Source of the DNA: Promethearchaeota archaeon
GTDB lineage: Archaea; Asgardarchaeota; Lokiarchaeia; Sigyniarchaeales; SOKP01
Assembly (NCBI GenBank): GCA_019058245.1
Contig: JAHPZJ010000010.1
Span: 1-64,000 of the forward strand
DNA length: 64,000 nucleotides
Reading direction: 5' to 3'
The position numbers and the translations under genes were made by a program. Positions 41,104-62,139 of the stretch are shown here, piece by piece (positions within the stretch are counted from its first letter, which is position 1; the number at the start of each line of letters is the position of its first letter). The notes under the pieces are model-generated. The model was given only the letters and a program-made list of their open reading frames with translations. It ran no database searches and was not told the DNA's origin.

Positions 41104-42726
41104 ATGGTTGGTAAAAACGATATTGCGGTTTCCGAAATGATGGAAAAAATTAGAGGATCCCTTATCCTCCCTGAGAGAGCATATTTTTTTGATACAACGC
41201 TCCGTGATGGGGAACAAACTCCAGGTATAAGTTTCACTCATAAAGAAAAGCTATCTATTGCTCAAGCTCTTAATGAGTTGGGAATTGATATCATAGAAGC
41301 GGGATTTCCTATTACATCTCAGGGAGATTTTGAAGCTTGTAGAGATATTGCGAAAATGGGTTTAGATTCTGAAGTGATGGGTTTAGCTAGAACAGCAAAG
41401 CCTGATATAGATAAAGTTATAGAGGCAGATATGGATAGTATACACCTATTTTGTGCCACTTCAGAATTGCATATGAGAGAAAAACTTCAATTAACTAGAG
41501 ATGAAGTCATAGAAAGAATAAGAGAAACCGTCTCATACGCTAAAGAACATTATTCTATTGTACTATTTTCAGCTGAGGATGCAACTAGATCAGATTTAGA
41601 TTTTTTAATTAAAGCTAACTTAACTGCTGTTGAGAGTGGGGCTACACGAATAAATATACCTGATACTGTAGGTACTATTTCTCCAGTAGCTTTTGGATAT
41701 ATTATACGGAAAAATTATGACGCCTTACCTAAAAATATTCGTATTGCGGCTCATTGTCATAATGATTTTGGTCTTGCTGTAGCAAATACTATTGCTGGGT
41801 TTGAAAATGGTGTTTCAGAAGCTCAAACAACAATTTTAGGCTTGGGTGAACGAGCAGGAAATGCATCTTTTGAAGAAACTTGTATGTCTCTTTATGCTCT
41901 ATATCAAATACCTATGAATATTAAAACAACAAAGATTTTTCCTACAGCTAAATTAGTAGAAAGTTTTTGTGGTGGGAAAGTCAGAATTGGTCGATTACAA
42001 CCCCTTATAGGGCAGAATGCATTTGCTCACGAAGCAGGTATTCACGCACACGCGATGCTACAACATGCGCGAACATATGAACCCATTACACCAGAATTAA
42101 TAGGAATTCACCGTACCGATGATGTGGAAGCAATTATAAAGCAATCAATAAAACTTGGAAAACACACAGGTGGTCATGCTCTTAAGGCTAAAATTAATGA
42201 CTTAGGTATTAGCCCTACTGATGAACAATTTACGAAAATAAGGCAACATGTAAAAAGTCTTGGTGATAAGGGGCATGAAGTTTCTGAAGAGGATTTTTTA
42301 GCAATTGTTAAAGATGTCATGGGGGAAATACCAAAAGAAGAACAATATGTTACTCTTGAAGAGTTAACTGTTTTGACTGGATCAGTTACACCTACATCAA
42401 CAGTTCGATTAAACATCAAAAATAATGGAGATATATTGCAAAAAGTAGCATCAGCAACGGGAGTAGGGCCTGTAGATGCCTCATGTAATGCAATTGTTAA
42501 ATGCTTTAAACCGATGAGTAAGATTGTACTTTTAAATTTTCAAATTGATGCTATTACTGGTGGAACTGAAGCATTAGGTCATGTTACCCTTGAAATCATG
42601 GATGTTGATAGTAATATAGTAGTCAAAGCTAGTGCGATTCATGAAGATATTGTTATGTGCTCTGTTCTATCTTTGATAAAAGGATTAAATCTAATTGTCA
42701 AGAAAAAGAGCATAACCTTAAATTAA
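41104..42726 (+). CDS. leuA: 2-isopropylmalate synthase
   Basis: DTTLRDGEQ, IEAGFP, PDTVG, HCHND, GLGERAGN, C-terminal regulatory domain GVGPVDA; operon context. Confidence 0.88.
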   Translation: MVGKNDIAVSEMMEKIRGSLILPERAYFFDTTLRDGEQTPGISFTHKEKLSIAQALNELGIDIIEAGFPITSQGDFEACRDIAKMGLDSEVMGLARTAKPDIDKVIEADMDSIHLFCATSELHMREKLQLTRDEVIERIRETVSYAKEHYSIVLFSAEDATRSDLDFLIKANLTAVESGATRINIPDTVGTISPVAFGYIIRKNYDALPKNIRIAAHCHNDFGLAVANTIAGFENGVSEAQTTILGLGERAGNASFEETCMSLYALYQIPMNIKTTKIFPTAKLVESFCGGKVRIGRLQPLIGQNAFAHEAGIHAHAMLQHARTYEPITPELIGIHRTDDVEAIIKQSIKLGKHTGGHALKAKINDLGISPTDEQFTKIRQHVKSLGDKGHEVSEEDFLAIVKDVMGEIPKEEQYVTLEELTVLTGSVTPTSTVRLNIKNNGDILQKVASATGVGPVDASCNAIVKCFKPMSKIVLLNFQIDAITGGTEALGHVTLEIMDVDSNIVVKASAIHEDIVMCSVLSLIKGLNLIVKKKSITLN

Positions 42727-57742: not shown

Positions 57743-58174
57743 TTAGTTCATTAATCCTCTTTCTTTTAACCATTCTTTTATTTTCTCATGAATTTGATCC
57801 CTAATTTCACGAAATTTATTTAGTTTTTCCTCATCAGTGCTTTCAAAGGTAGTAGGGTCTTCAAATGGCCAAAATAATCGAGTACCTACCCCTGGAATAG
57901 TTGGACATTTTTCTTCTGCTTTAGCGCATACAGTAATCACGACTCAAAAATGTATTTTTCCCAAATACTGCTTTAACTCTTTAGAAGTATGGTTACTTAA
58001 ATCATATCCTATTTCTTCCATCATTTTTATTGTTAAAGGATTAATCCCTTTTGGTTCAAAACCAGCACTATAAACTTCAAAATGATCTCCTGCATATTTC
58101 CTCAGAAATGTTTCTGCTATTTGGCTCCTTGCAGAATTTTTAGTACATAAAAAGATAGCTTTTGTTTTTTTCAT
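57743..58174 (-). pseudogene. arsC: thioredoxin-dependent arsenate reductase with one in-frame TGA
   Basis: [10 protein letters not shown]-loop, SAG..P, VITVC....KCP, W.FEDP, FR.IRD; both ORF halves in one frame, separated by TGA 57944-57946. Confidence 0.8.
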
Positions 58175-58235: not shown

Positions 58236-58294
58236 TATAGGAGGCAATCCTCTTGTCAATCTTTTACTAACATTTATTAAAAGATCTCATCCAA
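58236..58294 (-). promoter_or_regulatory. eukaryote-type SECIS element 1
   Basis: RNA uuggAUGA-gaucuuuuaau-AAAuguu-aguaaaagauu-GAcaa; 57/59 identical to copy 2. Confidence 0.8.
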
Positions 58295-58781
58295 TACTAT
58301 TTGAATATTCAGATTTAAAGTAGTGGGCAAAAATTTCATTGTCTTTTCCATATTTCTTTCTAATAATGCTTTTAAATTCACCGATATCCAGTCTTTTTTT
58401 CACTTTTTCTCATCAACATCCAGAATCTGGTTGTAAATCTATTACACTATTAGGATATAATACAAAATTTATATCATCCCGAAGCGGCATAAATTTTCTT
58501 AGATTACCATGCTCATCAGGACCATAAGACATTAATCCTATATCATCATAAATTGCATTTTCTTCTGGATTCCATATTAATTGTAAATAATTATGGATAT
58601 AACCATCAAATAAAGGAAATATAGATTCATCTGGATTTTCATAAATAAATTTATCTATGAGAGCTAAAGCTTCAACAAAAGTAGCATTGTCTCTGACTTC
58701 TATAGTAAAATTTTTACCATGTTGTAAACCACTTGACGGAATACTAATTTTAAATGTAATTTTTTTAATTTTAAAAATCAC
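58287..58781 (-). CDS. putative selenoprotein paralog 1: beta-grasp/MoaD-like domain ending G-C-U-U plus in-frame tail
   Basis: ...YPNSVIDLQPDSGC TGA TGA EKVKKRLDIGEFKSIIRKKYGKD...HYF; tail conserved with paralog 2; SECIS downstream. Confidence 0.7.
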
Positions 58782-58977
58782 CTCTTATTAATAAAAAAGA
58801 ATAAATTTTTAAACATTAAGATAGTCCTTTAGCTTTAAGTATTTTTAGGAGTTCTTTCTTAAGTATAACTGTTGGTATTTATTCTATATATATAATATTT
58901 ATACAAAATAATAAAAATACTTTAGAACAATGATATTTATCTTCATTCTTAAATAGAAATTATTATTAACATTTCTT

Positions 58978-59976
58978 TTACCAATCTTTGTTTTCCCATT
59001 TCTTAAAAGAACCAAATCCTTCAGTTTTTGAAATTACTTCTTTTAAACTTTTATCAAAAAGAATTGAGATATAATAAGAGGAAACTTCTCGTTTAAATGA
59101 TTTATACCGGATAGATTGTGAAAAACTTTCAGCTAAGATCAAAACAACTTTAACTGAATCCTTATTTTCATGAATAAAAGGAAGAATATAATTCCATTTA
59201 TGATAAAATCTATATTCCTGACTAATTTGTTTAGCTAATTCAAAAAAAATGAATTCATCTGAAACATTTGAAATTGTTTGATTTATTAAATCTTGTTTTT
59301 TGGATGAAAAAATAAATTTTTTTTTTAAAGTAAAAGTGATAAATTTATTCGTTAAAATTTTTTCATAAATTAAATAATAAAATGGAAGAAGACCAGGAAT
59401 GTATTTCTGATTTTTAGGAATTTTTAGTTGTATTATAATTCTTGAAAAACCCCTAATCCCAAAATATGCTAGATAAACATAGAGATAAAAGAAAGCAAGA
59501 TTCATAAGTATTTGATAATAAGGTAATGCAAAATAAAATGCTATTAAAACCAGAAGATTTATACAAGAAAAAGTCATCAATAATGGGTTCACTGCTCTAT
59601 CAGCAATTAGTCTATACTCTTTTTTAGAGATCGGATAAAATATTGGTATTTTTGAAGCAGCAAAAAAATCTAGAGAGACATGGATACTGTATCCTATGAA
59701 TCCAGCAAACCAAATCTCAATGAAAAAAACATTTCTAAATATAGATATAAAAAAACTAACAATTCCACTAATTATTAATCCGATAATATAAGAATGAGAA
59801 CCAGCTTTATGAGAAAGAAAGTACATTTTTCTGATTTTTTGGAGCGGTCCTAAGAAAACGTCCAAATCTGGTAAAAATGTCATAATCCACATTAGGATAA
59901 TAGCTTCTGGACTTAACTTGGTTAATGAAAATAGACCTGCTAAAACCCCTATAAACATATGTGTGAAAAAATCCAT
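58978..59976 (-). CDS. membrane-bound metal-dependent hydrolase (YdjM-like)
   Basis: D.FTH, LPDLD, H...SHS, H..LD motifs with TM segments. Confidence 0.85.
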   Translation of the reverse strand: MDFFTHMFIGVLAGLFSLTKLSPEAIILMWIMTFLPDLDVFLGPLQKIRKMYFLSHKAGSHSYIIGLIISGIVSFFISIFRNVFFIEIWFAGFIGYSIHVSLDFFAASKIPIFYPISKKEYRLIADRAVNPLLMTFSCINLLVLIAFYFALPYYQILMNLAFFYLYVYLAYFGIRGFSRIIIQLKIPKNQKYIPGLLPFYYLIYEKILTNKFITFTLKKKFIFSSKKQDLINQTISNVSDEFIFFELAKQISQEYRFYHKWNYILPFIHENKDSVKVVLILAESFSQSIRYKSFKREVSSYYISILFDKSLKEVISKTEGFGSFKKWENKDW

Positions 59977-60030
59977 ATATGTTTTAAAAATAAGACAGCT
60001 TATTTATACAATTCGATTAAAATTTATATT

Positions 60031-60089
60031 TATAGGAAGCAATCCTCTTGTCAATCTTTTACTAACATTTATTAAAAGATTTCATCCAA
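60031..60089 (-). promoter_or_regulatory. eukaryote-type SECIS element 2
   Basis: uuggAUGA-aaucuuuuaau-AAAuguu-aguaaaagauu-GAcaa in the 3' UTR just after TAA 60103. Confidence 0.8.
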
Positions 60090-60102
60090 ATTAATGAATT
60101 TT

Positions 60103-60567
60103 TTATAAATTAAAATAATGGGTGAAACTCTTATGATCTTTTCCATATTTTTTCATAATAATCCTTTTAAATGTCCCATAATCTAATCTCTCTTTCATTA
60201 CATCAGCTCATCAATCAGCATGGACAGCGATAGTTATTTCACTATTAGGATATAGGTTAAAGTTAATGTCTTCATGTAGAGGCATAAATTCTTTTTGAGG
60301 CCCATAAGCGTTTACAGCACAATCCTCATAAATAATATTATCCTCAGCATCCCAAATTAACTGAAGATAACTTTTGATTAAGCCTTTATAAATTGGAAAT
60401 ATGTTATCTTCGATATTTTCATAAACTTTTTTATCTAATATGCTTAATGCATCAACAAGAGTTCCATTATCCTTTATATCCAAATCAAAATCAATTCCAT
60501 TTGACAATTTCCTTTCAGGATCCGGTGCAAATATTGTTATTTTTATTTTCTTAATTTCCAAAATCAC
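60103..60567 (-). CDS. putative selenoprotein paralog 2: beta-grasp/MoaD-like domain ending D-U-U plus in-frame tail
   Basis: ...YPNSEITIAVHAD TGA TGA ADVMKERLDYGTFKRIIMKKYGKD...HYFNL TAA; first TGA aligns with Cys of paralog 1. Confidence 0.7.
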
Positions 60568-60598: not shown

Positions 60599-60889
60599 CT
60601 AAATTAATCCTTTTGCCTTCAGAAGGATTGGTAGTTCTCTCTTGAGATTAAAAGAGGAAGAGATTTTTTTCTTTCCATCTATTATTATGCATTTATTATA
60701 GATATTTAATTGCCTTGCTTCCTCTGAATTTAGATTTTTAGTGTCATAATCAATGTATTTTATATAAGGTGTAAGTTCAACAAATACTCGGTTCATGAAT
60801 TTATCCCATTCACACGCACAGGCATCTAACGGAACATAAATATCAACCTTTAATTTTTCTATAGTTTTATCATTAATTATTTTTATCAC
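60599..60889 (-). CDS. small thioredoxin-fold-like protein with CAC motif
   Basis: beta strand KVDIYVP, then DACACEW and helix; C-terminal IIIDGK. Confidence 0.65.
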   Translation of the reverse strand: MIKIINDKTIEKLKVDIYVPLDACACEWDKFMNRVFVELTPYIKYIDYDTKNLNSEEARQLNIYNKCIIIDGKKKISSSFNLKRELPILLKAKGLI

Positions 60890-60903: not shown

Positions 60904-61083
60904 TTAAACCATTTTATGAAGTCCTTTGTATCTATCGGTACCACAATGAATAAGCTTTGGTTGATAATCTGGATCATCCTTCTTACAATGTGATTCTGAG
61001 TCCTTACAACTCAAACGTGAAATTTGTTCAATGGCTTCACTTAATATTTTTGCAATTTGATTTTCCAATTCTTCCTCATTCAT
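60904..61083 (-). CDS. small Cys/His protein, 59 aa (not in ORF track)
   Basis: MNEEELENQIAKILSEAIEQISRLSCKDSESHCKKDDPDYQPKLIHCGTDRYKGLHKMV; first gene of the minus-strand cluster. Confidence 0.6.
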   Translation of the reverse strand: MNEEELENQIAKILSEAIEQISRLSCKDSESHCKKDDPDYQPKLIHCGTDRYKGLHKMV

Positions 61084-61326: not shown

Positions 61327-62139
61327 ATGATTGAGTTTCCTACTGAATTACTTATCATAATAATGCCCATAACGCTTGTAATTCTTTTCATATTATATAA
61401 GTTTAAATTTAAATTATCTCGAGGATCTGTAGCATTTAACAATATCGCACATGTATTAGCTTCTTTAGGTGTTATGTTAGTAATCGTCATTGTTTCTATG
61501 GGATATATGAATAACAATATTATTTTTGTATTGAGCGTAATGCCCCCAGGTACTGCTTATATGTTATATGTTTTATATAGGATTGTTAAATCTGTTCAAC
61601 AACAAGAAAAAACGATTCAAGACATCATCGATTCAAGTTCTCAAACATCAATAGCAGTTGCTAATATTGCTACAGAATTAGCTTCAAGTGCTAGTGAAAT
61701 AAACACGTCTGCTGAAGAAATTTCCACGACAACACAGCAAATTGTAGAATATAGTCGTACATCAATGAAATCTTCTAATGAAATTGAAAATATCATGAAA
61801 TTAATCACTAATATTTCAGATCAAACAAATCTTTTAGCACTCAACGCAAGTATAGAAGCGGGAAGAGCAGGAGAAAAAGGTAAAGGATTTGGGGTTGTGG
61901 CAGACGAAGTTAGAAAGTTAGCTGAAGAATCTAAAAATGCTGTTAGTGATTCTGGCAATAAAATCAGAGAAATTTTAGACAATATAAGATTAACATCCAC
62001 TTCTATGGAAGGTATAAGTGCATCAACAGAACAACAGACTGCTTCAATGCAAGAAATTACTTCTACGGCGCATAAATTAGAAAACTTAGCAGAAGAACTA
62101 AAAGAAAAATTAACTAAAATATCTATAAAATTATCTTAA
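61327..62139 (+). CDS. methyl-accepting chemotaxis protein
   Basis: [36 protein letters not shown] hairpin signature; N-terminal TMs. Confidence 0.95.

Follow-up and report, generated by a model that had tools for sequence, protein, structure and literature searches.

In the consulted parts of two studies of archaeal selenoproteins, the Lokiarchaeial genes carrying a selenocysteine insertion sequence (SECIS) of the lokiSECIS kind were those for HdrA, VhuD, VhuU, PrxL, and SelD (PMC4989117; PMC11227280). The lokiSECIS was defined there by an AUGA, a stem of 9 bp, an A-rich loop of 11 nt with G as its last base, and a GA, located near the stop codon (PMC4989117), and the Asgard lineage was reported to be without SBP2 (PMC11227280). 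Here we describe two paralogous genes on the minus strand of a 64,000-nucleotide stretch of DNA from a Promethearchaeota archaeon (Lokiarchaeia; Sigyniarchaeales; SOKP01), namely positions 1 to 64,000 of contig JAHPZJ010000010.1 (GenBank assembly GCA_019058245.1), referred to below as the window. An initial annotation of the window had claimed that each gene has two consecutive in-frame TGA codons, followed by an open, homologous tail and a SECIS-like hairpin, and had proposed a selenoprotein family with adjacent selenocysteine (Sec, U) residues and eukaryote-like 3' SECIS elements. Re-reading of the minus strand recovered the TGA pairs at 58415–58410 and 60213–60208, and the proposed family was supported in every test run. 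From comparison of the sequences, both adjacent UGAs are very probably read as Sec in both paralogs, and the best explanation as a whole, that both genes encode selenoproteins, is in our judgement highly likely.

Tandem UGA codons, the probable read-through frame, and the SECIS elements

The elements of the two genes were as follows (pLDDT, predicted local distance difference test).

58287–58781, minus strand: paralog 1 (type A, G-C-U-U), read-through coding sequence for a predicted beta-grasp domain and a 40-residue helical tail
58410–58418, minus strand: putative Cys-Sec-Sec codons TGT TGA TGA of paralog 1
58290–58409, minus strand: read-through tail of paralog 1, coding-constrained (selection, and pLDDT 96 at residues 131–150)
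60103–60567, minus strand: paralog 2 (type B, H-A-D-U-U-A), read-through coding sequence with a 34-residue tail and a TAA stop
60208–60213, minus strand: TGA TGA codons of paralog 2, putatively for Sec-Sec, with the first one aligned to Cys122 of paralog 1
58256–58290, minus strand: SECIS 1, in which an AUGA precedes a 9-bp stem with an A-rich loop of 11 nt that has AG at its end; a GA follows
60051–60085, minus strand: SECIS 2, 95% identical to SECIS 1 over 62 nt
58237–58253, minus strand: second small hairpin directly 3' of SECIS 1, with compensatory changes
60032–60048, minus strand: second small hairpin directly 3' of SECIS 2

Paralog 1 comprised 164 codons from the GTG at 58781, or 160 from a probable ATT start at 58769. 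After its TGA pair the frame was open for 40 codons up to a TGA inside an AUGA, and this final TGA (58289–58287) was, as had been claimed, the UGA of the SECIS AUGA. Paralog 2 comprised 154 codons from the GTG at 60567, or 150 from a probable ATT start at 60555, and its frame continued for 34 codons past the TGA pair to a TAA at 60105–60103. The two read-through sequences, which were the only copies of the family in the host genome, showed 50% identity and aligned without gaps across the motif. In the ungapped register from YPNS, Cys122 of paralog 1 stood opposite the first TGA of paralog 2, and the earlier counts for the tails (19 of 28 residues identical, 7 of these on different codons) proved exact.

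A profile search of 400 Asgard genomes found the family in 137 of 160 other Lokiarchaeia genomes (86%), that is, in 117 of the 134 other genomes of the host's taxonomic family and in 20 of the 26 from six other families within the class. SepSecS was present in 151 of the 160 (94%), and the family was confined to lineages with SepSecS. No true member was found outside the Lokiarchaeia class in this search; two weak matches (G324 and G282:C130), in which the motif was absent, were left out. Among the 105 distinct copies, type A (x-C-U-U) had 66 members, type B (D-U-U-A) had 30, and type C (U-G-U-U) had 9, and the tail after the motif was 32–44 residues long. In the phylogenetic tree, type C formed one clade within type A. 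Since type B was weakly supported (76/11), we draw no conclusion on the order of events, other than that C-U-U is the widespread form of the motif.

Every full-length match among the 400 genomes had two or three TGA codons. When the motif was tabulated by codon in the 104 of 105 distinct extracted copies that were long enough, TGA-TGA was present in 104 of 104; TAA, TAG, TGG, and TGY were all absent from those columns. Among the 222 long open reading frames (ORFs) ending in TGA in the host genome, a second TGA followed directly in one, which excluded chance as the origin of a pair kept in all 104 homologs. The ratio of nonsynonymous to synonymous substitution rates (dN/dS) was 0.12 for the tail and 0.13 for the stretch directly preceding the motif (types A and B), compared with 0.9–1.9 in the other two tail frames, which were mostly closed by stops; these values are descriptive, as pairs of related sequences are not independent. 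This indicated that purifying selection acts on the tail as it does on the body, and in this frame only, in agreement with the coding constraint claimed at first. The tails of two copies (L064 and L077) contained an extra TGA and are probably broken or affected by sequence errors.

Relatives without the stop codons came from a protein search of 1.84 billion representatives. These proteins, assigned to Bathyarchaeia where names exist, had one Cys and a fused tail helix, and hhalign matched them to the family at 99.8% over 134 columns covering both domain and tail. Another relative, P0086, had C-V-S at the motif with the full tail fused and branched among the Lokiarchaeial copies in the tree; thus, in both the Bathyarchaeia group and P0086 the tail was joined to the domain by sense codons. 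The Cys of type A and of the Bathyarchaeia proteins lay opposite the first UGA of type B. The Sec/Cys pairing put forward earlier therefore held between the paralog types at the first column and was not seen at the other UGA columns in two protein searches. The sense-codon relatives had one Cys followed by non-Cys residues, and Cys-Cys homologs fused to the tail were looked for and not found. In P0135 and P0157, the motif was absent altogether, and a related-locus search of genome contigs gave 2 loci. Searches of Pfam, NCBIfam, and PDB sequences with the family gave no match, and databases annotate its genes as ending at the first UGA. Because Cys homologs are missing, searches that depend on them may have overlooked the family.

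SECIS 1 and SECIS 2 matched the lokiSECIS definition in the consulted part of PMC4989117. In the family, the pattern followed 89 of 105 copies at a distance of 107–144 nt from the UGAs, compared with 42 of 3000 random windows (1.4%). The 16 misses included contig ends, visible variants, and first genes of tandem pairs that share a downstream element; one SECIS was shared by tandem genes in L018, L072, and L095. At one locus (L096) there was no SECIS directly 3' of the gene. All nine stem pairs varied on both sides, and shuffled and slid controls were far lower, in a covariation test that is inflated by related sequences. Since single-sequence folding was weak (z −1.3 to −1.9), it is this covariation that supports the elements, and the SECIS-like hairpin noted after each gene was thereby upheld in geometry, in recurrence, and in two-sided stem changes. 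An Rfam scan of the region gave no relevant family, and a strict SECIS scan of the host genome gave nine matches, including SECIS 1, SECIS 2, and those of both HdrA-VhuD pairs. In the accessory hairpin (helix 2), both sides had changed in five of six pairs. A second hairpin with a GC-containing loop was also seen past the GA core at host SECIS elements, including those of HdrA-VhuD (G000:C13:38561 and C28:244030), and no mention of such a hairpin 3' of the lokiSECIS was found in the consulted parts of the lokiSECIS literature.

The host genome, which is 76% complete, contained SepSecS above the cut-off, an EFSec-like gene 4.5 kb from SepSecS (235.7 bits, just below the bacterial selB cut-off), a PSTK-like gene (E 1.5e-41, below the cut-off), and two VhuD genes with TGA. 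In the consulted part of PMC11227280, a genome is taken as Sec-using if it carries a known selenoprotein together with three or more genes of the Sec machinery, and the host genome has both.

The ORF coordinates given at first stood for the tandem TGAs and probably not for the GTG starts at 58781 and 60567, both of which lie inside a Shine-Dalgarno motif; the true starts are probably the ATT codons at 58769 and 60555, as judged from the sequences. The codon before a conserved K-K-I, a few bases past the Shine-Dalgarno motif, was ATT in 50 of 77 copies, ATA or ATC in 11, and ATG in 6, and many copies of the family were without any ATG, GTG, or TTG start option. For 14 of 130 genes in a rough control across the genome, no start candidate other than ATT was available. 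A promoter scan gave results at chance level. When RNA runs were compared with the copy in genome G143, contig depth was flat over the whole stretch, which does not demonstrate transcription, and a single 155-nt metatranscriptome contig (depth 3.9) over the tail and SECIS region was too weak and was not used.

Predicted fold, gene neighbourhood, and proposed role

AlphaFold2 was run on 74 read-through sequences, in which Cys took the place of Sec. The model of paralog 1 had a pLDDT of 89 and a predicted template modelling score of 0.85, with a pLDDT of 96 for the tail helix and 73 for the motif loop. The best structural matches were beta-grasp proteins, namely the transcobalamin beta domain (Z 7.9), CysO (7.5), SAMP1 (7.4), and MoaD-like proteins (6.3–6.6); the sulfur-carrier structures matched at Z 6.2–7.5 with a root-mean-square deviation of 3.1–3.7 over 81–92 residues. 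With Z below 8, these matches are evidence of fold and not of function. Foldseek gave no match at E 0.001 or better, and profile comparison gave weak matches to true MoaD-like proteins ending in GG, with no Pfam ThiS or Urm1 match. The aligned ranges stopped at model residues 120–125, opposite the C-termini of the carriers (in Urm1, 1xo3, model residue 123 was paired with chain residue 101). The models suggest a beta-grasp domain of the MoaD/SAMP/Urm1-like kind, the last strand of which runs into C-U-U (paralog 1) or U-U (paralog 2), and, because the alignments end there against the carrier C-termini, Cys122-Sec123 is predicted to occupy the place of the carriers' Gly-Gly. The confidence values are consistent with a tail that appears to pack on the domain, so the motif would form an internal loop rather than a free C-terminus. 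Since there is no free Gly-Gly end, we do not regard the protein as a member of the sulfur-carrier family.

In the window, the genes were ordered as a small ORF, a C-A-C protein, paralog 2, SECIS, YdjM, paralog 1, SECIS, and a broken arsC. The neighbouring genes were as follows.

58978–59976, minus strand: YdjM-family membrane protein, encoded between paralogs 1 and 2 and present as a neighbour at 21 of 70 loci of the host's taxonomic family
60599–60889, minus strand: 96-aa C-A-C-x-C protein without a Pfam or NCBIfam family, directly upstream of paralog 2
60904–61083, minus strand: 59-aa ORF, adjoining the C-A-C protein in 14 loci
57743–58174, minus strand: arsC, thioredoxin-type arsenate reductase, interrupted by a TGA at 57944–57942

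The C-A-C protein was a neighbour in 43 of the 70 loci and was fused to an arsM-type methyltransferase in L121; to our eye it has a putative thioredoxin/ArsD-like look. The arsC of the host is probably broken, with a TGA where relatives have Gly or Lys/Asp. Reading of this TGA as Sec was rejected because it is located 3' of the SECIS and the corresponding codons of relatives are sense codons. In two relatives (L015 and L009), the arsC stop fell at a Trp position, which suggests repeated decay or sequence errors. The acr3 and arsR genes were located 4–6 kb upstream on the same contig, just past the window. A small chemoreceptor-like ORF (61327–62139, plus strand), identified by eye, lay on the opposite strand within the arsenic island.

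Neighbour counts were made in flanks of about 1.5 kb. An arsenic-type or HgcAB-like set gene was near 59 of the 70 loci of the host's taxonomic family, a count that is partly circular because the C-A-C protein is included in the set. By gene, the counts were 26 for acr3, 21 for an HgcB-like ferredoxin, 18 for a methyltransferase-HgcA-like fusion, 10 for arsR, 8 for arsC, and 6 for arsM, the HgcA and HgcB matches being below curated cut-offs. An acr3-arsR pair also stood beside two loci of a second taxonomic family. In Lokiarchaeia ars operons, a methyltransferase-HgcA-like corrinoid fusion was seen followed by an HgcB-like ferredoxin (L114:6127-8122, L122:9927-11926, and G000:C28:75204-76635). 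One Sec-less member (L125:1274-2216; C-V-S, no SECIS seen) was separated by 4 bases from a NifU_N scaffold gene downstream of it.

As(III) and Hg(II) have a known affinity for vicinal thiolates and selenolates. In the mechanism that we propose, the SECIS about 125 nt downstream would direct Sec insertion at both UGAs, giving a protein of 150–164 residues, and the ribosome would translate the 34–40 residue helical tail and stop beside the SECIS. The adjacent selenol and thiol groups, on a predicted loop between domain and tail, could then capture As(III) or methyl-As(III), or else a comparable soft metal, for instance Hg(II), at high affinity. In this scheme the protein would serve as chaperone or reductant and hand the metalloid on to the ArsM, HgcAB-like, or Acr3 proteins encoded in the operon. 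From gene context and ligand chemistry, we give about an even chance to a role in binding or handing on As(III) or a similar soft metal. We speculate that three ligands (C-U-U and U-G-U-U) suit arsenite and that two (U-U) suit methylated or two-coordinate species. The fullest form of the proposal, which we put forward tentatively, is a Lokiarchaeia-wide ubiquitin-fold selenoprotein with adjacent Secs (up to three in four residues) that would serve As/Hg capture and hand-over for ArsM/HgcAB-like methylation or efflux, with ligand sets differing between the paralogs and output limited by the AUU start and by double-UGA decoding without SBP2.

Alternative explanations for the role and the UGA codons

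Several observations weigh against the proposed role or against the decoding. With respect to the role, arsenic-type genes accompanied 3 of 22 loci in the distant families, with a cation-efflux gene at 3 more; the related genomes in the context counts are not independent; and the Bathyarchaeia homologs that could be placed lay among housekeeping genes. These mixed neighbours, the occurrence of the gene in most Lokiarchaeia, the CysO/MoaD/SAMP-type fold, and the Sec-less copy directly before the NifU_N gene would also fit a protein in which recoding is real and the function is that of a general redox or Se/S carrier (methyltransferase reductant, or selenium store or donor), the arsenic link being a later recruitment in one family. 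We regard this as possible, if on the doubtful side, since there is no free C-terminal Gly-Gly for activation, acr3-arsR adjacency occurs in two taxonomic families, and no E1 (MoeB/ThiF), JAMM protease, or SelD was recognised among 30 recurring neighbour clusters at 21 loci of 12–18 kb, as far as these partly annotated clusters were identified.

With respect to the decoding, a GTG, ATG, or TTG stood 3–4 codons past the UGAs in 67 of 82 copies of the host's taxonomic family, and an ATG in 29 of 29 type B copies, and Val codons in that column were GTG in 31 of 41, compared with 13% elsewhere in genes of that family. Start-like codons near 58395 and 60198 belong to this column, which is kept in the host's taxonomic family alone and may be a re-initiation site or reflect shared ancestry. 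Given the 67 of 82 copies, some re-initiation in the tail may occur. The initial annotation had raised an alternative of this kind, in which the first UGA is Sec, the second is a stop (G-C-U-stop, like the thioredoxin reductase tail), and the tail is translated separately from the GTG or ATG; a free C-terminal C-U would then occupy the Gly-Gly place of the sulfur carriers. This arrangement is improbable. Among 22 distant Lokiarchaeial copies, with tails that were nonetheless open and conserved, 2 had a start codon at the aligned position; the tail is fused by sense codons in relatives; neither TAA nor TAG ever occurs as the second codon, even though they account for 86% of long-ORF stops in the host genome; and it is argued in the consulted part of PMC4989117 that a UGA at such a distance from a lokiSECIS is itself read as Sec. 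The single-Sec product is a possible minor by-product under selenium limitation.

The identity of the inserted residue was considered in the same way. Of the Sec machinery called for at first, EFSec, PSTK, and SepSecS were present as described above, and SelD and tRNA-Sec were not found in the 76%-complete host genome; tRNA-Sec was present in two other genomes carrying the family (G138 and G143). In addition, two protein searches found no homolog with Cys in the second or third motif column, so that no Cys homolog backs Sec in two of the three columns, and full-length database entries, as produced by gene callers, read W-W, the one checked being translatable only with TGA as Trp. Reading of the UGAs as Trp, Cys, or Gly through a changed code or leaky read-through is nevertheless very improbable, because TGA is a normal stop in the host (it ends 222 of 1580 long ORFs), neither UGA of the pair is ever TGG or TGY, and a SECIS like those of known selenoprotein genes accompanies every gene or tandem pair. 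Least credible of all is an ordinary double stop, with proteins ending in Gly-Cys or Ala-Asp before a non-coding tail or RNA element. It accords with the database annotation and with the C-terminal ends of ubiquitin-like proteins, which Gly-Cys recalls, and is contradicted by amino-acid-level selection on the tail in this frame only, by the SECIS located after the tail, by a type B end in Asp without a thiol, and by the Bathyarchaeia homology across the tail.

Comparison with described systems

The family was absent from the seven Asgard selenoprotein families in the consulted part of PMC11227280, and neither it nor any beta-grasp selenoprotein with U-U appeared in the 119-family table of PMC13188914. 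The consulted part of PMC4989117 reports no further Loki selenoprotein candidates. In a literature search that mostly did not cover subscription papers, no description was found of tandem or consecutive UGAs or of an Asgard ubiquitin-like selenoprotein. If decoding of both UGAs as Sec is correct, the family would be among the most widespread selenoproteins of Lokiarchaeia, added to a catalogue so far put at seven Asgard families, and would expose a blind spot in searches that need Cys homologs. Its conserved back-to-back UGAs, decoded from a eukaryote-type SECIS without SBP2, would offer a short natural substrate for studying an ancestral eukaryote-like Sec machinery, and the gene context would connect selenium use with arsenic and mercury handling in sediment archaea.

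The known Lokiarchaeial selenoprotein genes share with this family the SECIS geometry, the position after the stop, the overlap of the stop UGA with the AUGA, and the sharing of one SECIS by tandem genes, whereas there is no relation in sequence or fold and the Secs here are directly adjacent. Outside the window, further small genes of the host were followed by a lokiSECIS. On G000:C27 (plus strand), neighbouring small paralogs with two predicted membrane segments and one in-frame TGA each (S-U-G and A-U-G) had their own lokiSECIS at 41928 and 42395, respectively; they do not belong to known Loki selenoprotein families and are further candidates. On G000:C13 (minus strand), a small protein with one membrane segment and G-G-U-G-C was followed by a lokiSECIS at 146168; it could represent a new candidate or belong to a known gene of the PrxL type.

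With MoaD, ThiS, CysO, SAMP1, and Urm1, the family has the predicted beta-grasp fold in common, and it differs from them in having no Gly-Gly, no free C-terminus, and a conserved helical tail past the motif. The single-Cys beta-grasp proteins of Bathyarchaeia (for example, UCH02879.1 and MFP3985191.1) show homology to the family across the domain and as far as the first helix of the tail. When such a protein was modelled separately (pLDDT 94.5), it had the same order of secondary structure, and its one Cys is in the same column. However, these proteins have no UGA, no Cys in the next columns, a shorter tail, and housekeeping neighbours.

With regard to the proposed role, ArsD is an arsenic chaperone and, like the present proteins, a small ars-operon protein with vicinal soft ligands; the family has no Pfam or NCBIfam match to it and is predicted to have a beta-grasp fold. 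Bacterial C-U selenoproteins of organometallic pathways have been described, namely SaoL, SaoB, SaoC, and HgcA, of which SaoL was annotated as truncated at its C-U site (10.1101/2022.07.06.499078), and bacterial hgcAB has been tied to arsenic regulation (10.1101/2022.10.17.512643). The likeness of the family to these proteins and to ArsD, vicinal Cys/Sec ligands encoded in metal(loid) operons, is a functional analogy only: the folds are unrelated, and the bacterial selenoproteins have C-U and an in-frame SECIS, whereas the motif here is U-U. The decoding system of the two genes is already known, and the fold, the adjacent Secs, and the three motif types are new relative to the published selenoprotein lists with which they were compared.

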